Origin: an uncultured bacterium
GTDB lineage: Bacteria; Hydrogenedentota; Hydrogenedentia; Hydrogenedentales; JAEUWI01
DNA length: 14,217 nucleotides
NCBI GenBank assembly: GCA_963977445.1
Contig: CAXBPH010000186.1
Span: 1-14,217, forward strand
Reading direction: 5' to 3'
In this document: positions 1-11,846 of the stretch, in pieces
Layout of the letters: each line of letters opens with the position of its first letter
Numbering within the stretch: the stretch's first letter is position 1
The notes under the pieces: model-generated
Told to the model about the DNA's origin: nothing
Seen by the model: only the letters and a program-made list of their open reading frames with translations
Database searches by the model: none
Translations under genes and position numbers: made by a program

Positions 1-980
1 TCAAGCTGAACAAATTGGCTGGCGAGTTTGCTGAGCCGTTGGGTAAGGGCTTCCGTGTCATAGCGTCGGTGCCGAACCACTCGATCCAGAAGCAGTTGGG
101 CTCGCTCGCGTATCGGCTGAATGACGATAGCCACCACGAGTGAAGTCAGCGCGATGCTAAGGATGTCATAGGCCTCACCGGCCTGGGAAAAGCCTTTGTG
201 AACCAGGGAGACCACGGAAAAGTAGAGTACAAATACCATGACCGTAACAACAGCGTAGGTGGTCGTGCGGGATACGATAACCCAGATGTCGAGGAGGTGA
301 TAGCGCACCATCGAATAGGCGAGGCCCGTAATCATCAATACGACGAAGCAGGGGCCGTAGAGTTCCATGCTGTTGACATCAAAGAGGGCGGGCAACAACA
401 CGTTGGTGGCAATGGCAAATCCCAGGCCACCAAAAATGGAGCCGAGTACGTGCTCAATCTGACGCCGCTGAATGCCCTCGCTGTGGGAAAGTTTACGAAA
501 CAGATTGACAAACATCAGCACCGTCGTCAATACCAGCATGGCGGTATAGGCCTGGAAGACGGGACCATACTTCGCACTGGGCGGCAAGACAGGAGAAACT
601 TCGAGGCTGACAATATACCAATCCGTATTGACGAGTGCGGTCAACACAAAGGCTCCGCCATACAGGAAGTACAGATACCACCGGATACCTTTGAAATGCT
701 GGTTGGGGAAATAACCGATGAAATGGTAGAAGGTGGCCGGGAGGAAACTGGCTACGCCAAAGGTCACCATAATCCAGAGGCGGGCGCTATCGTAGTTTCG
801 GCAATGTACGATGAAAAATACGCCGAGGGCCCACATGGAGAGATTCAGGGTAAGCAGGGCGAAGACACGGTGGGTGATACGTTCAGGATTGCGAATGAGG
901 ACAACAAGGCCCATCAGACAGCTCGATAGGGCTGACGTGATAAGTAAAAAAGAGGTTATCAGGGCGCTGTAATCCGTCAA
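1..980 (-). CDS. Membrane sensor protein, N-terminal part (HisKA_7TM-like multi-TM domain; probably a histidine kinase or other signal transducer); 3' end truncated by the window edge
   Basis: Not in the ORF track because the frame has no stop in the window. Manual translation from TTG at 980, 2 bp after the ketosynthase stop, gives MTDYSALITSFLLITSALSSCLMGLVVLIRNPERITHRVFALLTLNLSMWALGVFF...GLAYSMVRYHLLDIWVIVSRTTTYAVV...IQPIRERAQLLLDRVVRHRRYDTEALTQRLSKLASQF. It has about 9 hydrophobic segments. The RNP, AYxxxRYxLLDI and PxRxxxQxxxDRxxxxxxYD motifs are typical of 7TM-type sensors that precede GAF/HisKA domains. The output domain is not visible. Confidence 0.85.
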   Translation of the reverse strand, partial: MTDYSALITSFLLITSALSSCLMGLVVLIRNPERITHRVFALLTLNLSMWALGVFFIVHCRNYDSARLWIMVTFGVASFLPATFYHFIGYFPNQHFKGIRWYLYFLYGGAFVLTALVNTDWYIVSLEVSPVLPPSAKYGPVFQAYTAMLVLTTVLMFVNLFRKLSHSEGIQRRQIEHVLGSIFGGLGFAIATNVLLPALFDVNSMELYGPCFVVLMITGLAYSMVRYHLLDIWVIVSRTTTYAVVTVMVFVLYFSVVSLVHKGFSQAGEAYDILSIALTSLVVAIVIQPIRERAQLLLDRVVRHRRYDTEALTQRLSKLASQFVQL

Positions 981-982
981 AG

Positions 983-2227
983 TCAGGCTGCTTTTCGAAT
1001 GATTGTGGCGCTATGGGTGCCGCCAAAACTGATGGCCACAACCAGGGCAGCGCCTACGTCGTTCATGCGCGCGATTTTAGGGACGAAATCGAGGTCACAA
1101 TGGGGATCGGGATCGTCCAGGTTCACCGTCGGAGAAATAATGTCCCGGTTCAGGGCCAGCAGGCCGGCGGCCAAACCCAGGAGTCCGCCCGCCGCGTAGG
1201 ATTGACCAATCATGGATTTTACGGCACTTATAGGAATGCGGTATGCCTGATCGCCAAAGACCCGCTTGAAGGCATTGGTCTCGCTGCGGTCATACATATC
1301 AAGAGAGACGCCGTGTGCCTGGATACAATCTATTTCATTCTTATTGACGCCGGAGGCCCGCATGGCCCGCTCGATGGCTTGCGCCAGTCCCCGACCTTCT
1401 CTGTCCAGGATGAGGGGGTTGACGCCTTCGGAAGAGGAGCCATTACCGGCAACTTCTGCCAGAATGCGGGCACCGCGTGCCACAGCTTTATCCCGCCGCT
1501 CCAAAACGAGGGTGCAGGCCCCTTCGCTGAGCACGATGCCGTCGCGGTGTCGATCAAAGGGCCGCATGGCCAGCGCGGGTTCGTTGTTTCGTTTGGATAG
1601 AATGCCCAGGGCACAGGCACCCGCCATGGAAATGGGAAAAATGGGCGACTCGGTAGCGCCTACGACGGCGGCATCCACCTGGCCCATTCGGACCTGATTG
1701 TATCCCCAGGAAAGGGCATCCAGGCCGGTGGCGCAGCCACTGGATATGGTGATCGCAGGGCCCTTCACGCCGATATCGATGGAAACGTGGACAGTGGCCG
1801 AGTGTCCGGAAAAGGCCGAAGAAGCGAGCTTTCCGATGCCCTTATAGCCCGACGTTTCCATGGCGCGCATCTGCACATCATAACTCTCGTCGGGCGACCC
1901 GATGCTGGTGCCCACGGCGACGGCGATGCGTTCGGGGTCATACTTCGCGGCTTTGAGATCGGCATCTTCCACCGCAAGGCGGGAACTGGCGAGGGCCTGG
2001 TGGACGTGTCGGTTCCAATTGCGAACGACACTTTTTTTCATAAAATCTTCGGGATTAAAATCCTGTAACTCGCCCGCGATCTGACAGGGAAGGTCGCTGG
2101 CGTCGAATCGGGTGACGGCACGAATTCCAGATTTGCCGGCTTCAATGGATTTCCAAAATGCTTCCCGGCCGATTCCATTGCAAGCCAGAACGCCCATCCC
2201 GGTAATTACTACAGAGTCTGAATACAT
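983..2227 (-). CDS. fabF: Beta-ketoacyl-ACP synthase II (FabF/KS-alpha)-like ketosynthase with an atypical catalytic triad
   Basis: 414 aa with VVITGMG start, G-P-x-x-TISSGCATG (Cys165), RPFDRHRDGIVLSEGA, IQAHG (His305), AVKSMIGQS (Lys337; Gln342 where the second His is expected), PTVNLDDPDP and SFGG. The family is clear, but it is probably a specialised paralog rather than the housekeeping FabF. Confidence 0.85.
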   Translation of the reverse strand: MYSDSVVITGMGVLACNGIGREAFWKSIEAGKSGIRAVTRFDASDLPCQIAGELQDFNPEDFMKKSVVRNWNRHVHQALASSRLAVEDADLKAAKYDPERIAVAVGTSIGSPDESYDVQMRAMETSGYKGIGKLASSAFSGHSATVHVSIDIGVKGPAITISSGCATGLDALSWGYNQVRMGQVDAAVVGATESPIFPISMAGACALGILSKRNNEPALAMRPFDRHRDGIVLSEGACTLVLERRDKAVARGARILAEVAGNGSSSEGVNPLILDREGRGLAQAIERAMRASGVNKNEIDCIQAHGVSLDMYDRSETNAFKRVFGDQAYRIPISAVKSMIGQSYAAGGLLGLAAGLLALNRDIISPTVNLDDPDPHCDLDFVPKIARMNDVGAALVVAISFGGTHSATIIRKAA

Positions 2228-2235
2228 AGCGCTGC

Positions 2236-3918
2236 TCAGTTTCCCATTACTTTCTTCACGATCGATGGCGGATAGAAATCTACGGTATTGATCGATGCCG
2301 TAGCATGAATGTTAAAGGTGTCGACAAAATTCCGTAAGGCGGCTATATTGAGCGTCTTCATAGCCCGCTCCAGGCCGTGGATAAACCGGTTCTCCCGGCC
2401 CTGTTCACCCGATATCCGGGCAATGAGTCCTGCCTGGCAACCCGATTCAATGGGGGGGCAGATGCCTTCCAGTTCCTGATCGAAGGCCTTGAGCTGGCCC
2501 GCAATGGTGCTCCGTTTTCGCCCGGCGAAGGTGAAGGGGAGCCTCGCGGCCTCTTGAAAGGTGTTCATCGTCAAGGACGAGGTGGAAATCCAGTCTTCAA
2601 GTTGCCTGAGACGGGTGGCGAAATCAAATTCCGCTGCGTGTTGGTGCCAGGCGCTGCCGGGTATCAAGTGGGGCAGTAAGAGGCGCAGCGTGCCGGGTTT
2701 GCAACGGTGCAGTAAACGGATGGTTTCTGCACGAGAGTGGTAATCATCGGCGGGAACGGGATAAATGAAATCGGTGTGCAGGAATATACCCGACTCGCGA
2801 CAGGCGCGCAGACAGGATTCCACATCACTTATGGACCAGTTTTCGCCGAAATAATCGGAAAGCGTGATCTGACTGCCCGTCAGCAGGGAGAAACCGAGGG
2901 ACTGACAGCCCGAAGTGGATAGAAGTGACACCGTGTTCGGGCAAAGTTCAAAAACGTGGGCGTCGCGACTGTAGGCCACCGGAAAGGGCATGGTGATGCA
3001 TTCCCGGGCGAATTCGATGACCCCGTCCCTGGACGTATGGGATCCGGTCACATGAAAGGCCTGCGTCCCATAAAGTTCGTGGAGTGCAATCATCTCCCGC
3101 CGAAGCTGGCGGACGGAACGGGCCTGTGCCCTGCCGTGGGACTTGCCGCGATAGTGTCCCTGGTGATTGAGCCCGCGCCCGCCGTTCAAAGTGAAAAGAT
3201 TAAACTTGCCGCCCTCGCGCAATGCGGGATAGGACTCCGGGTGGTAGGCGGGGATGGCACTGGCGGGCAATGCCGTAGCACCCCAGTCGGGTGATTCGAA
3301 TAGATTGGCGTCCGCGCGGCAGATAATTCCCGGGATCTGTGGCCACGTTGCAGGCGCATCCCATCGGGCGGCCAGACTGGGCACGGATGATTCCGGTCGG
3401 GTGGTGCAGGCCACATCGATGGCGTTGCAATCCATCAATACCTGCCGACCAAAGCGTACCGCCATTTTACCGGCAAGGGCGATGCAAAGGCGGGGCCAAC
3501 GCATTTTCAGGGCTTCGGCGAGTTGCCGTGCCTCATGGAGGTCTTTTCGTCGCTGTGCCAGTAATACGACCACATTGGGCGGGCTATCCACCTCGCCCGA
3601 AGCGGCCAGGGCCCGATCGATGCGTCGCTTCAGGAAAAGGGCCAGCGCCCGACGTCGACCCCGCTGGGGAGAAGAGAAAAGTTGTTTCCAACCTGCGGCG
3701 ATGGGGGCACCCTTGTCGATAGTTGCCGCCAATATATGGGGCAATTCGTCGTCCAGAAGGGATTCCAGGGCATCTAGCGTGCCGTCATCCACAATGGTGG
3801 CGCCATGCCCATGCGCCCGTAGTGCACCGGCACACCGGGCCAACAGGGGCTGTGGCATGAGATCATCCACATGCAGGGGCATGCCGGGCAGCGCGTATAG
3901 TAGAACCCGTGTATCCAT
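2236..3918 (-). CDS. B12-binding domain / radical SAM-fold protein with degenerate Fe-S motif
   Basis: 560 aa that follow class B radical SAM architecture: PQPLLARCAGALRAHGHGATIVD (cf. PPLGLxxLAAxLRxxGHEVxIxD), QIPGIICR, RSVRQLRREMIALHELYG, SGCQSLGFSLLTGSQ (cf. AGCxxIxxGxESGS), TDFIYPVPADD...ETIRLL (cf. FIxGLPGET) and PGSAWH (cf. PGTPLY). The expected RGCxxxCxFC reads RGLNHQGHYR. Confidence 0.75.
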   Translation of the reverse strand: MDTRVLLYALPGMPLHVDDLMPQPLLARCAGALRAHGHGATIVDDGTLDALESLLDDELPHILAATIDKGAPIAAGWKQLFSSPQRGRRRALALFLKRRIDRALAASGEVDSPPNVVVLLAQRRKDLHEARQLAEALKMRWPRLCIALAGKMAVRFGRQVLMDCNAIDVACTTRPESSVPSLAARWDAPATWPQIPGIICRADANLFESPDWGATALPASAIPAYHPESYPALREGGKFNLFTLNGGRGLNHQGHYRGKSHGRAQARSVRQLRREMIALHELYGTQAFHVTGSHTSRDGVIEFARECITMPFPVAYSRDAHVFELCPNTVSLLSTSGCQSLGFSLLTGSQITLSDYFGENWSISDVESCLRACRESGIFLHTDFIYPVPADDYHSRAETIRLLHRCKPGTLRLLLPHLIPGSAWHQHAAEFDFATRLRQLEDWISTSSLTMNTFQEAARLPFTFAGRKRSTIAGQLKAFDQELEGICPPIESGCQAGLIARISGEQGRENRFIHGLERAMKTLNIAALRNFVDTFNIHATASINTVDFYPPSIVKKVMGN

Positions 3919-4239: not shown

Positions 4240-4860
4240 ATGAGTTTATTTACCAAATGGCGGCAAAAGCGCCTGGCCCGATTGTTCAAGCGCGTCGGTG
4301 CCGATTGCGTCTTTAATGCAGAGCACCTTGAGATCAAGGGGCGTGTTGAACTGGGTGACCGGTGCACGCTCGCCAACAATGTGTTGATGCGTACCCATAA
4401 AAAGTCCCACATTATCCTGGGTGACGACGTGAGTCTGGGCGATCACGTGATGATTGCCAGCAACGATTCGGTGGAAATTGGTTCCAACACCCGAATCGAT
4501 GCCTATTGTGTCATCCGAGATATGAATCACAGTTTCCGGGGCACCGATGTGCATTGGCGCCTCACGCCCCACTTGAGTGAACCCATTCGAATCGGCGAAA
4601 ACTGCTTTATCGGTGCCCACAGCTACATTATGCCGGGTGTGACGCTGGGCAACGGCGCCGTTATCCTGCCCCGCAGTATCGTGAGCAAGGATGTGGGCGA
4701 GTGCGAGATATGGGGGGGGAGCCCCCGGGCACAACGACTCGGTCACCGAACCGACGGGGATATCCAGAGCACCCTGAAGCGCCACTTGGACCTGCTGTCG
4801 CTCTACGGATTTGACGAAGCATCGGGCGATGACGACGAGACCGACGAGAAGCGTTCCTGA
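4240..4860 (+). CDS. Hexapeptide-repeat (left-handed beta-helix) O-acyl/acetyltransferase, maltose/galactoside acetyltransferase-like
   Basis: Repeated [LIV]G hexapeptides (VELGDRCTL, IILGDDVSLGDHVMI, VEIGSNTRI, IRIGENCFIGAHSYIMPGVTLGNGAVI), the conserved His motif DMNHSF, and SIVSKDV...WGGSP. RBS GAGAGG upstream. Confidence 0.9.
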   Translation: MSLFTKWRQKRLARLFKRVGADCVFNAEHLEIKGRVELGDRCTLANNVLMRTHKKSHIILGDDVSLGDHVMIASNDSVEIGSNTRIDAYCVIRDMNHSFRGTDVHWRLTPHLSEPIRIGENCFIGAHSYIMPGVTLGNGAVILPRSIVSKDVGECEIWGGSPRAQRLGHRTDGDIQSTLKRHLDLLSLYGFDEASGDDDETDEKRS

Positions 4861-5407: not shown

Positions 5408-8400
5408 TCAGGGTATCGCGATGTTCAGCTCAACCGTGCCCGTCGATCCAACTTCCACCGTCGCCGAGGCGAAGCGTGCTCCATCGAATCCATTGGACCC
5501 GATTTCCACCGCGAACACGGTGTACGTGCCTCCACCAAGCCCGCCAACATCAAACGCTCCCCCGGCCTCGACCATGGAAAACCCGGCGACGTTCGCTTGG
5601 AAGTCTGGGGACGTGAATAAGGTGGCAATGTTGTCGGTTTGGATGTTCCCATTGACTGCGATAACCTGACTTTGGCCAGCGCTGGAAATGCCTGATACGA
5701 TTCCCTGAATATGGGCACCCTCATCAATCTCCACGTCCAGACGAGTCGTTTGTCCATCGGTGACGGTCGTATCGATGACACGCATCTGTCGCTGCGTGCT
5801 GCCCGCCGCTACGGCGTGGAACATAACCCGATACGTTCCCGTCGAGAGACCTGAGATGGCGTAGGTCGCATTGGGCGACACCACGCCCTGCACCTGCTGT
5901 CCGGCACTATCTTCCCCGGGCATCGACGCAACCACGAAGCCTTCACTGATGGCCTGACCACCTATGGTGATGGTGCCTTCGATGGCACCCGATCCGAAGT
6001 CCACCGACAAGTCGACCGTGGTGGTGAATCCCGCTTCGACGGTCACCGTTTTGTTTTGGCTCTTGGTCGCACCGTCCCGGGTGACTTGAGCTTGTATCAT
6101 CACTTCGCCGGCAGGTAGCTTGTCCAAGGTATAGAATCCATTGGCATCGGTTGTCGAACGGTGCTGGCCTTGTGCCAGGCTTTGTGCGAAGACGTGTTGA
6201 TTGGCTATGGGCGCTCCATTGGCGTAGACCGTGCCCTCGATCGTGGCACCACCCGTCATGACGATTTCTACGTGGGTCGACTGTCCGTGGACCAGTTGGA
6301 CGTCGACCGTCGTATCGGGGAAGTCCGGGTGGATGGCGGTGATCTTCGCCAGGTCTTCGCCCACGGAATGAATATCGAAACGGCCTTCTGCGTCGGTGGT
6401 TGCTGCCGCGCCAGAGCTATTGTTATTCAGCATCCAGGGTTGAACCTGGGCGAGGAGAAAAATCCGGGCGTTTTGCACGGGTGCGCCTTGCATATCGCGC
6501 ACTACCCCCTCGATGGACGCGCCGGGCTGGAGGCGGAATTGAACGCCACCCGTTACGTCGTCGGGCGCGACATAGGGCACGTGTTGAATCTGGGGTGCAT
6601 ACCCGGCGGCCTTGGCATAGATGGTCGCTTCGCCCGCTTCAACCGTATCGATGGAGAAATGACCCTCTTCATCATAGAACGATACGTAGTTGGAGGTCTG
6701 GTAGCTGTATTCATCATTCGCCAGACCCTGACTGTGGGTGATCTCAAAATTGGCAATGGGCCGCCCTGTCGTGGCGTCAACCACCTGGCCTTCCACGGTG
6801 CCCCGACCTTCCAGGACAACGTCCAAATTACGGGTGCCGGCCTCAATGCCCTCACGCTGTTGGTGGCTATAGCGCGGGTGATGAATCTGCATGTTATAGC
6901 TCAGGCCTTCATCCACAGTGAGCTCGTACTTACCCTCCGTGTCGGCTTGAACGTAGGCACTGCTTCCCCCCGTGGGGCTGTATGCATTGACGGAGGCGCC
7001 TTCAATGGCTTCCCCGGCGGCATTGGTGATGCGACCGGAAATGGTGCTGCCCGGCCCGGCCTCGAAGACCAGGCGGACGCCTGTCAGTTCCTGTCCCTGG
7101 GTGACCGTGACTTCCTGCTCACCTTGTTGGTTTTGGCTCCAGGAATTGCGGCGTCGGACCGTAAGACGGTAGCTACCGGCGTCGAGGCTTTTGATGACGA
7201 ATTCCCCGTCCGGTCCCGTAAGTTCGGATCCGTTGTTGAAGCTGCCGTCGGCGGAGGCCACAGAGACAAACATATCCGGCAGGGGCTTGCCCGCCGTGTC
7301 CACCACCACACCAGTAATGCTCGCGCCTGGCGCCACGACGATTTCGATGTCTTCCAAACCGGAATCACCCGTGCTCAAGGGGCCCAGCTTGGGTGCCGTA
7401 TAGCCGCGACCGGAGACCCGAATCTCAACGTCCACGTTGGGTGAAAAGCCCCGTAACGAAAACGTGCCGTCTTCGGTGGTCAATACGTTTTCGCCCTCGC
7501 CGTTGTCTACAATCGGATTGCAGGCAACGTTCACGCCCTGAACAGGATCACCGGCCTTGTCCACCACGATGCCCGAGATCGTCAGGCCACGACGAACGGC
7601 AAAATCGATGTTTTCCAGTGCTTCGCCCAATTGGAGCGACACGGTTTTGTTTTCCCGCGATTCGCCGTGGAGATAGCCTTCTTTCCAACGACGACGCAGG
7701 GTGAAGCTGCCGCCGGGCATGCCCGATATGCGATAGAAACCGCTGGCATCACTGATCCCCTGTAGTTCCCGGCCTGTCGAGGGCTGGTTGCCACGGGCCT
7801 GAATCCGGATGCCGGAAATAGGCGCACCGGTTTCTGCGTCGGTTACCAGACCCGAAACGGAGCCCCCGTCGATAATTTTGAGCTCGACCCCGTCCACGGG
7901 TTCTGCGTTGGAGAGGGTGACCCGAGGACTTTCGCCCACGAGGATGCGCTCTTCATCGTCCAGGCGAATGACGTAATCGCTGTCGGCCAGGGCCGTGGCC
8001 TCGAAGGCACCATCTTTGTCGGTGAGTACCCGCTGTTGATTGCGACCGTTCTTCTCATCATTTACGGTTACATAGATATTGGGCACGGCCTTTCCGCCCT
8101 TTGCCTCGGTAACCGAACCTGAAATGCTGGAGCCCTGTTTCAGCACGATTTTTGCATTGACCTCACCGGTCTTGAAGGCTTCCGTAATTTCGCTAGCGTA
8201 ATCCGTTGCACCCACGGAGAGTTTCCACGTGCCCTTAACCAGGTTTGCCAAAGCGAAACGGCCTTCTTTGTCTGTTGAGGCCCAGACATTTCGGGCACCA
8301 TAGGAATATCGTTCCTGACCTTTTTCTTCAATGGATTCGGGGGTAACAATGGCACCGGCGACGGGTGCGCCCTCTCCGTTGAGGACCTGGCCGCTGATGC

Positions 8401-9025
8401 TTCCCGAGGGGCGCAGCTCCAGTTCGATCAAAGTCTGGGTCTCGTCATCGGTCAATCCGGCGGTGGTTACGGCACTGGCACCATCCTTTTCGGCGATGAC
8501 GCAAAGTCGCCCGCCTCGATTACCTGAAACCGCATTGACGGGAAGGTTGGTAATACGAAACTGGCCCCGATCGTCCGATTGGGTGGTCCACCGTGCAGGA
8601 TCGTCGGGGTAGGGGTCATAGGAATTCTCGCGCAGGACATAGTCCAGCACGACGCGGGCACCGGCAACGGGTGAGCCGTCGCCATGCCACGTAACGACAC
8701 CGGACACGATGCCCGGACCCCGGGGACGCTTCGCGTTTTTCGCCGCTTTTTCTTCGGGCGTATCATTGCTGTCTTCGTCGGCCGTGGCGGCCAGCTCTTC
8801 GTCAAATTCGGACGCCGAGGAGCGTGGCGAAGCGGCAGCGCTGGGAGAAGAGCCCGAGGAGAGGTTTAGATCAGCGCTGCTATCCGTTTGTCGAGTGGGC
8901 CTGGTAGAGCGGGATGACTCGACTCCGGGCGCAACTTTTTCCTCCTGGAAAAGGAGGAAACCGATACACCCCAACACCACAACAAAAAATAGTCCGATTA
9001 AAGACAGGCGTAGATTGTCACCCAT
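5408..9025 (-). CDS. Large membrane-anchored extracytoplasmic protein with about 12 carboxypeptidase-regulatory-like (CarboxypepD_reg / CnaB-like beta-sandwich) repeats
   Basis: Start moved from 9073 to ATG 9025, which has AGGGAG 8 nt upstream; 1205 aa. It has an N-terminal TM/signal anchor (LSLIGLFFVVVLGCIGFLLF), a Ser/Pro/acidic linker, then 12 units of GxISGxVxDxxGxPIxGAxV...TDxxGxFxxxxLxxGxYxL. No catalytic domain recognised. Confidence 0.85.
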   Translation of the reverse strand: MGDNLRLSLIGLFFVVVLGCIGFLLFQEEKVAPGVESSRSTRPTRQTDSSADLNLSSGSSPSAAASPRSSASEFDEELAATADEDSNDTPEEKAAKNAKRPRGPGIVSGVVTWHGDGSPVAGARVVLDYVLRENSYDPYPDDPARWTTQSDDRGQFRITNLPVNAVSGNRGGRLCVIAEKDGASAVTTAGLTDDETQTLIELELRPSGSISGQVLNGEGAPVAGAIVTPESIEEKGQERYSYGARNVWASTDKEGRFALANLVKGTWKLSVGATDYASEITEAFKTGEVNAKIVLKQGSSISGSVTEAKGGKAVPNIYVTVNDEKNGRNQQRVLTDKDGAFEATALADSDYVIRLDDEERILVGESPRVTLSNAEPVDGVELKIIDGGSVSGLVTDAETGAPISGIRIQARGNQPSTGRELQGISDASGFYRISGMPGGSFTLRRRWKEGYLHGESRENKTVSLQLGEALENIDFAVRRGLTISGIVVDKAGDPVQGVNVACNPIVDNGEGENVLTTEDGTFSLRGFSPNVDVEIRVSGRGYTAPKLGPLSTGDSGLEDIEIVVAPGASITGVVVDTAGKPLPDMFVSVASADGSFNNGSELTGPDGEFVIKSLDAGSYRLTVRRRNSWSQNQQGEQEVTVTQGQELTGVRLVFEAGPGSTISGRITNAAGEAIEGASVNAYSPTGGSSAYVQADTEGKYELTVDEGLSYNMQIHHPRYSHQQREGIEAGTRNLDVVLEGRGTVEGQVVDATTGRPIANFEITHSQGLANDEYSYQTSNYVSFYDEEGHFSIDTVEAGEATIYAKAAGYAPQIQHVPYVAPDDVTGGVQFRLQPGASIEGVVRDMQGAPVQNARIFLLAQVQPWMLNNNSSGAAATTDAEGRFDIHSVGEDLAKITAIHPDFPDTTVDVQLVHGQSTHVEIVMTGGATIEGTVYANGAPIANQHVFAQSLAQGQHRSTTDANGFYTLDKLPAGEVMIQAQVTRDGATKSQNKTVTVEAGFTTTVDLSVDFGSGAIEGTITIGGQAISEGFVVASMPGEDSAGQQVQGVVSPNATYAISGLSTGTYRVMFHAVAAGSTQRQMRVIDTTVTDGQTTRLDVEIDEGAHIQGIVSGISSAGQSQVIAVNGNIQTDNIATLFTSPDFQANVAGFSMVEAGGAFDVGGLGGGTYTVFAVEIGSNGFDGARFASATVEVGSTGTVELNIAIP

Positions 9026-9085
9026 GCCGCATGCTCCCTGCGTTAACTGTTTCAATATAACAACGTACCGCAACGTTAGAATATC

Positions 9086-9230: not shown

Positions 9231-11846
9231 ATGAAGATCAATCAGTTGCTCCAATATGAAATCCCTGAGGACGTGGTAGGGCGTTGGCGTACCTATGGGT
9301 GCGAGACCTTGTTGCCCTTGCAGGAAGAGGCCGTAAAACGACACGATCTTTTTGGCGCGAGGAACCTGCTGGTCCAGGCCCCCACAAGCTCGGGCAAAAC
9401 CTTTGTGGGAGAGATGGCGGCCATCCATACGGCTTTGCGTCAGAAGCAGGTGGTCTATCTGGTGCCCTTGAAGGCCCTGGCGGAAGAGAAATACCGCGAA
9501 TTTCATCAGAAATACACCGATTATGGCCTCAAGGTGATTTTATCGACCCGGGACCATCGCGCCCACGACCAGGAGTTGGAGCAGGGGAATTTCTCGATTG
9601 CCGTGGTGGTCTACGAGAAGCTTGCCCAATTGCTGGTGCGGCGGCCGGAGCGGGCGGCGGAAATCGATTTGGTTATCGCCGATGAACTGGAAATCCTCAG
9701 CGACCCCGAGCGGGGGCCCGGCGCGGAACTGCTGCTCACCCGGCTTCGTCAATCCCAGTGTCGTCTTATCGGGCTGTCGGCGGTTATCGGGGGTGCCCAA
9801 CGCCTGGCAAACTGGATGGACGCGACGCTGGTGCAATCGGACCAACGGCCTGTGGAGCTGCGCTACGGGGTCTTGTATGAAGGGGAATTTCACTACCGGA
9901 GCTGTAATGCCATGGGGCAGGGGAGTGAATCCCTGGTTGCGGGGTCCGGGGAATCTGCCGAAGAAGTCGCCCTGGAAAATCTTGCCGTCTTCGCCGAAGC
10001 GGGGGAGCGCAGTCTGGTTTTTGTGCGGGCGAAGCAGGATACCCGCCGGGGTGCTGATCGGATAGCGGCGCGATTGGATTTGCCCGCGGCGACCGTAGCG
10101 ATGGCCGCGTTGGAAGGCCTGGAGCCGACCCGATCCCGGGAAGCCTTGTTGGCGGTCATGGCCCACGGGGTCGCCTTTCACAATGCCGATCTTTCGCCGG
10201 AGGAACGGGTGGTGGTGGAGGAGGCCTTTCGTGTGGGTGAGGTGCTGGTGCTGGTGTCGACGAGCACCCTGGCCGTGGGACTGAATCTGCCCGCTCGGAA
10301 TGTGTTCCTCACCACGGAGAAATGGCGCTATGATAGCCAGCTGGGCATGCCGTGGAAGACGCCCGTATCGCATATGGAATATGAAAACATGGGCGGCCGG
10401 GCCGGGCGCCTGGGCATGGGCTACGACTATGGGCGGGCTATTCTCGTCGCCACATCGCCTTTCGAGAAGGAATTGTGCTGGCGGCGCTATGTGGAAGGCA
10501 CGCGGGAGTGTATTGAGCCCCAACTGGGGCGGGTGCCTTTGGAAGATCATGTGTTGCGCCTCGTGGCGTCGGGTCATTGTCGCACCCTGCGGGCCCTGGC
10601 GGCGTTCCTGGAACAGACCCTGACCGGCCAATGGGTCTGGGCGGAAACGGTCACCCCGGAAGAAACCCGCTCCCGGATTCGTGCGGCCGTCCACCGTTGT
10701 GTCAGCTACGACCTCATTGTAGAGGTTCCCGAAGAGGAGGGCCGTCCCATGGAGGCTACGCCCTTTGGACGGGCCGTGGCACAGAAAGGAATCGGGGTGG
10801 AGACCGCACGCTTGCTGCGAACGTGGGCCGAGGCGTCGCGCTACCGGGAATGGTGTGTTGCCGACGTGGTGTATGCCGCCGCCAGCACCCCCGAAGGGCG
10901 CGCGACCCAGGTTCTCCTTACGACCCGGGAATATGACGAGGCCGGTTACGTGGCGGAGTTGCGGGAGCGGACGCGACATGCCGGCATGGATAGGGACCTG
11001 CCCCTGGGCCGATTGTGTGCTGCGCGACTGCAACCCTTCTTCGAAGAGGTCCGTGCCACAAAAGTCACCTTGTTTCTACTGGATTGGCTCGACCAAATCC
11101 CTATATATGCCGTAGAGGAACGATACAACACAATGTCAGGACAAGTAATTGCGTCATCAGCGCAACTTTCCTGGTTGATTGACGCCATCGGGGCCATCGC
11201 CGTTGCGCAAGGGATGGAAGGACCCTTTACCGACAGGCTCGCCCGATTGGCTGCGAGCCTGTCCTGTGGTCTGGGCGAAGCGTTGCTGCCCGTGCACCAC
11301 GCCATGGAGGGTGGGCTGACCCGCGCCGAAGCGATTCAGCTTGGGGAGGTGGGGCTCGGTACCTTGGCGGCCCTTGCGGAAGCGCCCTTGTCCGTGCTTA
11401 CGCGCTATTTCGACGAAAATCGGGCCTGTCAGCTGCAGGTCCTTGCGAAAGCGGCCGTGCCGGTCGAGACGGCGATGGAGGGCGAGGTAGATTCCGCTGG
11501 CGCCCCGCCCCGTCTGGTGATTGATGAAGGGAAGCCCAATGAGATTGCCCTGGATGCCCATGTCGTGCCCCTGCAGCGTAAGCAATACGAGTTGATTCGT
11601 CTATTGGCCCAGGTGCCGGGGGAGTGCGTCCGTTACGAAACCATCTATGACACCTTGTGGAAAGGAGTGTGCGTTGAGCAGAGCCAGATGCACTATCAAA
11701 AACGGACCCTGCTTCAGCGCATCCAGGAGGCCTGTCCCGGCCGGGAAAAGGGCCTGATCGTTACACGAAGTCGCTATGGCTATGCACTCAACATGGCGCC
11801 CGACGCGGTTCTTGTTCGGCCGGCACCGGTCGTCTCAACGGCATAG
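9231..11846 (+). CDS. Ski2-like/Hel308-like SF2 helicase fused to a C-terminal OmpR/PhoB-type winged-helix DNA-binding domain
   Basis: 871 aa with Q motif LLPLQEEA, I APTSSGKT, Ia VPLKALAEEKYREF, II ADELE followed by DPERGP, III LSAV, RPVEL, IV LVFV, GVAFHNADL, V STSTLAVGLNLPA and VI NMGGRAGRLG. It also has the Hel308 winged-helix ATPFGR and an HhH-like segment. Residues ~759-855 match the Trans_reg_C pattern (LQRKQYELIRLLAQVPGECVRYETIYDTLW...LIVTRSRYGYAL). Confidence 0.9.
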   Translation: MKINQLLQYEIPEDVVGRWRTYGCETLLPLQEEAVKRHDLFGARNLLVQAPTSSGKTFVGEMAAIHTALRQKQVVYLVPLKALAEEKYREFHQKYTDYGLKVILSTRDHRAHDQELEQGNFSIAVVVYEKLAQLLVRRPERAAEIDLVIADELEILSDPERGPGAELLLTRLRQSQCRLIGLSAVIGGAQRLANWMDATLVQSDQRPVELRYGVLYEGEFHYRSCNAMGQGSESLVAGSGESAEEVALENLAVFAEAGERSLVFVRAKQDTRRGADRIAARLDLPAATVAMAALEGLEPTRSREALLAVMAHGVAFHNADLSPEERVVVEEAFRVGEVLVLVSTSTLAVGLNLPARNVFLTTEKWRYDSQLGMPWKTPVSHMEYENMGGRAGRLGMGYDYGRAILVATSPFEKELCWRRYVEGTRECIEPQLGRVPLEDHVLRLVASGHCRTLRALAAFLEQTLTGQWVWAETVTPEETRSRIRAAVHRCVSYDLIVEVPEEEGRPMEATPFGRAVAQKGIGVETARLLRTWAEASRYREWCVADVVYAAASTPEGRATQVLLTTREYDEAGYVAELRERTRHAGMDRDLPLGRLCAARLQPFFEEVRATKVTLFLLDWLDQIPIYAVEERYNTMSGQVIASSAQLSWLIDAIGAIAVAQGMEGPFTDRLARLAASLSCGLGEALLPVHHAMEGGLTRAEAIQLGEVGLGTLAALAEAPLSVLTRYFDENRACQLQVLAKAAVPVETAMEGEVDSAGAPPRLVIDEGKPNEIALDAHVVPLQRKQYELIRLLAQVPGECVRYETIYDTLWKGVCVEQSQMHYQKRTLLQRIQEACPGREKGLIVTRSRYGYALNMAPDAVLVRPAPVVSTA

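Follow-up and report, generated by a model that had tools for sequence, protein, structure and literature searches.

Cobalamin-dependent (class B) radical S-adenosylmethionine (SAM) enzymes such as TokK, CysS, MgmA, OxsB and AprD4 share one domain order and one fold. TsrM, a class B tryptophan 2-C-methyltransferase, is not known to use 5'-deoxyadenosyl radical chemistry and thus offers a precedent for a non-radical function of such a scaffold. Here, we analyzed a gene located on a 14,217-nucleotide stretch of DNA (contig CAXBPH010000186.1, from an uncultured bacterium of the Hydrogenedentota; the whole stretch is called the window hereafter). Its product, P0001, has the same domain order and predicted fold as these enzymes, lacks the cluster cysteines and bears marks of its own (TGSQ, PxDDYH and a ...VGN end) that are absent from the canonical enzymes used as an outgroup. 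The explanation that we favour, which we judge to be about evenly poised between right and wrong, is that P0001 is functional and acts, without radical chemistry, as a partner of the ketosynthase encoded next to it, within a signalling cassette.

Some described gene clusters can be compared with the neighbourhood of P0001. In CqsA/CqsS and LuxM/LuxN, an acyl-chain enzyme is encoded beside a polytopic membrane sensor kinase. The likeness of the P0001 cassette to these pairs is an analogy, with no sequence relationship and with different enzyme types. TIGR04072 ('lipid biosynthesis B12-binding/radical SAM protein') is a class B radical SAM protein of ladderane-type lipid gene clusters and is named for that context; it is weakly matched by relatives of P0001 (25-95 bits vs a 360-bit cutoff) and not by P0001 itself. 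Ladderane clusters also contain FabF homologs, according to a preprint (bioRxiv 10.64898/2026.05.19.726425). Unlike the lipid pathway of the TIGR04072 clusters, the P0001 operon holds kinases and a sigma-54 regulator.

The P0001 protein and its former cluster loop

The gene and its signature elements are located in the window as follows.

2236..3918, minus strand: class-B radical-SAM-fold protein P0001 without CxxxCxxC, 560 amino acids, first gene of the operon (uninterrupted translation)
3148..3177, minus strand: former cluster loop R248-G-L250-N-H252-Q-G254-H255-Y256-R257 (translation RGLNHQGHYR, residues 248-257)
2869..2892, minus strand: F343-SLLTGSQ-350, the family motif (D/x)TGSQ(R) replacing canonical GxESGS (family alignment)
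2725..2763, minus strand: Y386-PVPADDYHSRAE-398, the family motif YPxPxDDYHxRAE replacing canonical GLPGET (family alignment)
2239..2253, minus strand: C-terminal tail K-V-M-G-N, the family ...VGN end (tail comparison)

The original prediction had described an intact 560-amino-acid open reading frame (ORF) whose product lost all three cluster cysteines, and the translation bears this out. L250, G254 and R257 occupy the three cysteine columns, no interruption was seen, and the loop also contains Y256 and the two histidines that had been noted, H252 and H255. Aligned through a profile of its relatives, this loop falls on the cluster loops (NRGCPYSCSFC type) of TokK, CysS and MgmA, and the full-length relatives that do bear CxxxCxxC have their cysteines at exactly columns 250, 254 and 257.

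An AlphaFold2 model of P0001, built from an alignment of 21 sequences, had a mean predicted local distance difference test score (pLDDT) of 81.7 and a predicted template modelling score (pTM) of 0.86; pLDDT fell below 50 in the former cluster loop (251-263) and in the C-terminal tail (544-560). Class B cobalamin-dependent radical SAM enzymes ranked at the top when the model was submitted to Foldseek and VIA-align. TsrM (PDB 6WTE/6WTF) was the best structural match and covered all three domains (Z 19.8, root-mean-square deviation (rmsd) 4.0, 426 aligned residues, model 2-539; Foldseek E 8.6e-13), followed by AprD4 (Z 19.3), OxsB (19.2), MgmA (18.6), CysS (18.1) and TokK (17.9). Its Z score lies within 1 of those of AprD4 and OxsB, so no specific kinship of P0001 to TsrM is shown; unlike P0001, TsrM keeps its CxxxCxxC cluster, the sequence identity is about 14%, and the TsrM model of NCBIfam, TIGR04428, does not match P0001.

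The alignments of TsrM, OxsB and TokK start at residue 1 of the model, and residues 1-188 resemble the cobalamin domain of methionine synthase (MetH) with a Z of 11.1 (rmsd 2.5, 123 aligned). Residues 238-539 gave Z scores of 11-13 with HydE, NifB, MqnE and viperin vs 17-20 with class B enzymes, and the look-alikes found in the ESM Atlas were B12-binding/radical SAM clusters. The model contains the partial (beta/alpha)6 triosephosphate isomerase (TIM) barrel core of the radical SAM superfamily, and P0001 is predicted to combine an N-terminal B12-type Rossmann domain with a partial TIM barrel and a third, C-terminal domain, in agreement with the fold that had been expected for it.

Profile searches recognized P0001 less readily. 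Of the two Pfam domains that had been anticipated, PF04055 was matched at the border of significance (29.7 bits, cutoff 29.5) over residues 259-403 only, from profile position 20 and therefore past the Cys motif, whereas PF02310 gave no match even at E<=1. The NCBIfam matches were weak and all far under their cutoffs (ApyD 2e-10, HpnJ 1e-6, BzaD 8e-6), the best score being that of ApyD with 39.6 bits vs a cutoff of 750; none of the named class B families (ApyD, HpnJ, BzaD, PhpK, TIGR04013) reached its curated cutoff with P0001. In such sequence searches, P0001 was covered by no curated family of Pfam or NCBIfam. In the literature, we found no description of this radical SAM-like family, of the ketosynthase clade described below or of the cassette, and the passages of the class B review PMC12931638 that were consulted mention no cluster-less members.

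Cysteine loss and selection in the wider family

A word-indexed search returned 20 homologs of P0001 (41-59% identity, each about 540-560 amino acids), and none of the 20 has the cysteines. The three cluster-Cys ligands are thus missing in 21/21 members of P0001's own clade, whose alignment has 85 invariant columns. A profile search against 1.84 billion representatives gave 4843 matches at E<=1e-3 and 265 at E<=1e-30, of which the best 150 were taken. Among the resulting 169 sequences (the 21 and 148 new ones), 45 bear CxxxCxxC, always at the homologous site. Members with and without this motif are called Cys+ and Cys- below.

A FastTree phylogeny was computed on 157 rows, after removal of the 12/169 rows shorter than 480 amino acids and exclusion of motif columns 246-266, and was rooted on 18 canonical relatives. 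The ingroup of 139 rows (25 Cys+ and 114 Cys-) is split from this outgroup with a support of 100. The Cys state changes 14 times on the tree, and well-supported branches alone force at least six of these changes. We read them as losses because the outgroup is Cys+ and the regain of three correctly spaced cysteines is implausible. Intermediates with part of the cysteines occur (P0053, P0054, P0066, P0078, P0040 and P0025). P0001 lies in a 60-row clade that is entirely Cys- (support 88) and, within it, in the nested clade of 21 rows (support 100).

With or without cysteines, the ingroup is marked by (D/x)TGSQ(R), YP(C/S)PxDDYHxRAE and a C-terminal ...(A/V)VGN, at places where the 18 outgroup sequences have ESGSQ (FGVESGSQ), PAPxETE and no such tail. 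A G[ND] C-terminus was found in 20/25 Cys+ and 89/114 Cys- members and in 0/18 outgroup sequences. The barrel motifs had been reported as eroded to SLLTGS and PVPADD in P0001; these sequences are as described, but erosion is not what the family alignment shows, since G348, S349, Q350, P387, D392 and E398 are, together with G337, invariant across 123 aligned ingroup sequences, Cys+ members among them. At D391, H394, R401 and R405, conservation reaches 89% or more among Cys+ as well as Cys- members, and the outgroup has other residues there. A divergent Cys- subclade (L035, L038, L042 and L058; P0109-P0122 and P0146) has no ...VGN tail and ends in ...FS or similar; its genes adjoin thioredoxin and aspartate-semialdehyde dehydrogenase genes and not the ketosynthase cassette.

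We then compared conservation column by column between 25 Cys+ and 97 Cys- rows, 17 of the window's 20 close relatives being dropped to cut their weight. A conservation of at least 75% in Cys+ that is not matched in Cys- members was seen only at columns 250, 254, 257, 354, 359 and 472. The two groups conserve about 60 further columns to the same degree, including B12-domain and ingroup-specific barrel residues. The B12-domain columns kept in Cys- members as in canonical enzymes are L7, P14, P22, A27, A30, L33, G37 and H38, and further D44, G150, D168, Y225, Y230 and K238. Position 346 is E in 18/18 outgroup sequences and D in 20/25 Cys+ members, and among the 114 Cys- members it is mostly D (46), L (22) or P (19), L being the residue of the window's clade. 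At position 359, 17/18 outgroup sequences have K and 20/25 Cys+ members have R, and the residues of Cys- members include H (27), R (23) and E (22), with E in P0001. The drift of both positions alongside the cysteines would be consistent with lost SAM binding.

The 21-sequence clade is the most derived, with L346, E359, a re-fixed loop G249-x-x-H252-x-G254-H255-Y256-R257 and invariant C29 and C307. In this loop, G249, H252, H255 and Y256 do not vary, and 20/21 members have G254 and R257. The remaining Cys- clades, including the 39 further members of the 60-row clade, have a variable or deleted loop; the invariance of H252/H255 does not extend to these clades, and the aromatic Y256 is fixed solely within the 21 sequences. 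In most of the closest Cys+ relatives, H255 precedes a small residue at position 256.

Orthologs of P0001 were found at six genome loci, five of them in metagenome-assembled genomes of Candidatus Hydrogenedentota/Hydrogenedentales and one on a metagenome chromosome. The ratio of nonsynonymous to synonymous substitution rates (dN/dS), obtained by the Nei-Gojobori method from unsaturated pairs (dS <1.2), was 0.095-0.125 among L005, L006 and L007 and 0.12 for L003-L004, every pair with the window's own copy being dS-saturated. For the same pairs, it was 0.02-0.06 for the acetyltransferase neighbour and 0.035-0.11 for the ketosynthase. The ORF was intact in all orthologs examined, with a single TAA in G085 only.

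The family profile found matches at E<=1e-20 in 134/135 genomes of the phylum Candidatus Hydrogenedentota and in 86/86 of the high-quality ones; the top match reached E<=1e-60 in 118/135, and the weaker matches may be other class B proteins. All loci of known origin belong to Hydrogenedentota, several metagenome loci being duplicates of phylum genomes. One genome, G125, has two copies of the pair of radical SAM-like and ketosynthase genes, on different contigs (C213 and C190). The original prediction had named orthologs that keep CxxxCxxC, together with a dN/dS near 1, as signs of a decaying gene. With 0/20 orthologs bearing the motif, a dN/dS of about 0.10-0.12 and near-universal presence in the phylum, the P0001 gene is not decaying and is maintained by selection.

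The ketosynthase and the signalling operon

Three features surround the P0001 gene in the window.

983..2227, minus strand: FabF-like ketosynthase P0002, 414 amino acids, triad Cys165-His305-Gln342 (alignment to FabF)
3..980, minus strand: N-terminal seven-transmembrane (7TM) part of a sensor histidine kinase, HK1, truncated at the contig end (PF16927 HisKA_7TM)
4240..4860, plus strand: hexapeptide-repeat acyl/acetyltransferase (WbbJ/WcaF-like library matches, below cutoffs), divergent, upstream of the radical SAM-like gene

The genes on the minus strand are tightly packed, with 8 nt between the stop of the radical SAM-like gene and the ketosynthase gene and 2 nt between the stop of the latter and HK1. 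P0002 aligns over its full length with Thermus thermophilus FabF (KAS II, PDB 1J3N; E 2.6e-90) and shares with it the nucleophile, Cys165, and the first histidine, His305. The second catalytic histidine of FabF is replaced by Gln342 (codon 1202-1204, minus strand), and the Cys-His-His triad of FabF/KAS II is thus not present in P0002. This glutamine is invariant in 20/20 ketosynthase genes of the cassette and in 119/119 of the nearest cluster representatives (>=64% identity), whereas the other FabF of the same genome (C238, 35% identity) retains the histidine. P0002 scores 365 against the fabF equivalog TIGR03150, whose cutoff is 494, and none of the papers listed by a literature search mentions Cys-His-Gln. 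P0002 represents a distinct, very conserved ketosynthase clade that carries a generic FabF annotation only.

The association of the two genes was followed by tblastn. A ketosynthase gene lies directly downstream of the radical SAM-like gene, on the same strand, in all six genome loci, and the hexapeptide transferase lies upstream on the opposite strand in the same 6/6. The metagenome set comprises 39 loci, of which seven have too little downstream sequence to be informative. The ketosynthase is directly downstream in 21 of the other 32 and missing in 11; the 21 linked loci comprise eight Cys+, nine Cys- and four in which the motif region is not covered. After the ketosynthase, a 7TM kinase follows in 19/21, the contigs of the other two stopping before. 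Among 20 phylum genomes sampled across 10 families, the ketosynthase was downstream in 14, and one of these loci (L064) is Cys+ within the cassette. The metagenome and phylum sets overlap (for instance, L014 is G090:C111) and kin are not independent. The transferase was also seen upstream in four phylum loci (L053, L054, L061 and L065) and five metagenome loci (L018, L024, L025, L034 and L043), of which L034 and L043 are distant from the window's family. Across the phylum, the ketosynthase was found at E<=1e-110 in 81/135 genomes, and a comparison of coordinates showed that 77 of its 82 places directly adjoin a radical SAM-like match, the other five having the two genes on different contigs.

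The rest of the operon was read from longer loci. Full-length HK1 orthologs are arranged as 7TM-GAF-(PAS)-HisKA-HATPase (about 840-860 amino acids), and orthologs of a second kinase, HK2, as REC-GAF-(PAS)-HisKA-HATPase (about 640-665 amino acids). In a complete genome of the same genus (operon part L006:10934-17675), HK2 is followed by an NtrC-type sigma-54 response regulator and then by a PfkB-family kinase. The same regulator (56-72% identity) follows HK2 in 9/9 phylum loci that could be extended downstream (L067-L075), with PfkB next in 5/9. The order of the operon is therefore radical SAM-like gene, ketosynthase, HK1, HK2, sigma-54 regulator and often PfkB, and its first slot is shared by Cys+ and Cys- members.

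Three larger genes occupy the remainder of the window.

5408..9073, minus strand: 1221-amino-acid protein with about 11 CarboxypepD_reg (transthyretin-like) repeats
9231..11846, plus strand: Hel308-type DEAD/DEAH helicase, 871 amino acids
11881..13914, plus strand: type I phosphodiesterase/nucleotide pyrophosphatase family protein, 677 amino acids (assigned at family level)

The repeat protein is conserved (58-61%) in L003 and L004. It weakly matches an anammox S-layer glycoprotein model and scores 71 bits, vs a cutoff of 39.8, with TIGR04134, a 'radical SAM-associated putative lipoprotein'. The C-terminus of the helicase weakly resembles an OmpR/PhoB-type winged helix (Trans_reg_C 22.7 bits, cutoff 26.2), which would be an unusual fusion if real.

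Possible functions of P0001

P0001 descends from cobalamin-dependent (class B) radical SAM enzymes and would have given up radical chemistry. Since it has no cluster cysteines and carries L in place of E346 and E in place of K/R359, it presumably neither holds cluster-bound SAM nor cleaves SAM reductively. Apart from the three cysteines and two or three other columns, Cys+ and Cys- members agree in their conserved residues, and both occupy the same operon slot; we infer that the activity under selection is independent of the radical SAM cluster. This selected job would be performed jointly with the ketosynthase; as their adjacency is near-obligate, action on or with the Cys-His-Gln ketosynthase appears most likely. 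P0001 may bind or process the acyl substrate or product of this enzyme via its B12-type domain and barrel pocket, for which TGSQ, DDYH, E398, R401 and R405, equally conserved with or without cysteines, are candidate residues. More speculatively, the pair could make or buffer a lipid-like ligand that is sensed by the membrane 7TM/GAF kinases. In a bolder version, which we consider unlikely, the discarding of the radical module at least six times, with all else retained, would mean that a second activity, independent of the cluster, has been present in the family throughout, within a signal-making cassette. Such an activity could modify the nucleophilic alpha-carbon of the beta-ketoacyl product by polar chemistry, mediated by cobalamin or by acid/base catalysis. 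Together with the Cys-His-Gln ketosynthase, it would yield a lipid-like signal for the adjacent 7TM/GAF kinases and the sigma-54 regulator to read.

Several observations weigh against a partnership of P0001 with the ketosynthase or against the steps that lead to it. In phylum families f3 and f8, the ketosynthase was found in 0/23 and 0/10 genomes, respectively, while the radical SAM-like profile matches 22/23 and 10/10, and in L010 and L015 the radical SAM-like gene is directly followed by PfkB, without the ketosynthase-kinase block. The radical SAM-like protein thus has or can have a role that does not depend on the ketosynthase. The dependence is asymmetric, because the ketosynthase is nearly always beside the radical SAM-like gene, yet the latter persists without it in f3 and f8. 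The radical SAM-like protein also evolves far faster (24-59% identity to the window's protein vs 57-83% for the ketosynthase overall, and 24-36% vs 57-69% in part of the comparisons), and the mean pairwise identities of 0.32 and 0.65 would be odd for tight obligate partners. The cysteine losses were read from a FastTree phylogeny only, in which long branches were flagged. That positions 346 and 359, the acid of GxESGS and a base about 13 residues further on, contact SAM is carried over from canonical enzymes. Finally, the re-fixed loop HxGHYR, with the clade-specific C29 and C307, might make up a new site for a metal or cofactor. At a ketosynthase identity of about 0.65, the radical SAM-like identity averages 0.32 in Cys-/Cys- pairs (n=89), 0.33 in mixed pairs (n=83) and 0.37 in Cys+/Cys+ pairs (n=12), so that Cys loss brought at most a small acceleration. 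This comparison used 29 loci in which both genes are near full length, without pairs above 0.9 ketosynthase identity, and its pairs are non-independent.

Another explanation, somewhat unlikely in our view, could be that P0001 is a pseudoenzyme receptor that binds cobalamin or another cofactor or ligand via its B12-type domain and modulates the two downstream histidine kinases. The equal conservation of canonical B12-domain columns in Cys- members is consistent with this, as are the likeness of the N-terminal domain to that of MetH, the dominance of signalling genes in the operon and the fact that family members lacking the ketosynthase still adjoin sensor kinases (L020, L034, L043 and L059). 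However, PF02310 does not recognize P0001, and the ketosynthase, which has an intact Cys nucleophile and His and is adjacent in 77/82 places, points to chemistry and not to sensing alone. It seems quite improbable that P0001 is still a metalloenzyme in which an Fe-S cluster or a different metal is bound by H252/H255 with C29, C171, C307 or C338 and supports SAM-dependent or other redox chemistry. In favour of this, a clade of only 41-59% overall identity has no variation at H252, H255, Y256, C29, C307 and C338, and 20/21 of its members keep C171. Yet the rest of the 60-row clade (39 members), besides its variable or deleted loop, has aliphatic residues at 29 and 307, C338 is none of the three motif cysteines of canonical enzymes although it is conserved there too (84%), the four cysteines sit in the predicted model on four separate secondary-structure elements across two domains, and E346 and K/R359 are replaced.

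The original prediction had also proposed a structural subunit for an active paralog, which was not supported: the genome has one family member, no radical SAM gene adjoins it, and its constant neighbour is the ketosynthase. That P0001 is the inactive subunit of a radical SAM paralog encoded elsewhere is very improbable; the genome does encode other B12-domain proteins (four PF02310 matches), but none of the loci examined showed a radical SAM gene within its conserved neighbourhood, and Cys+ and Cys- forms substitute for each other at the operon slot without co-occurring there. A decaying gene or an annotation artefact is scarcely credible. The dN/dS of the radical SAM-like gene is indeed above that of the acetyltransferase in the same pairs, but it is far below 1 and the ORF is intact in the orthologs examined, apart from the TAA in G085. 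The pseudogene reading was ruled out by the conserved columns, the low dN/dS and the phylum-wide presence.

Radical SAM annotations are usually made by fold or profile alone, and radical chemistry is then presumed. Here, a radical SAM-like family occurs in nearly all genomes of one uncultured phylum, and most of its members have no cluster, yet they are under purifying selection. Similar genes labelled radical SAM or B12-binding radical SAM may thus be mis-assigned. The matched Cys+ and Cys- orthologs provide a natural experiment on a class B scaffold without its cluster, and the distinct Cys-His-Gln ketosynthase clade and the operon of two kinases and a sigma-54 regulator are flagged as one unit. 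If such a second activity without the cluster was indeed present in the family throughout, this unit would be an undescribed cassette for signal synthesis and sensing, near-universal in an uncultured phylum.

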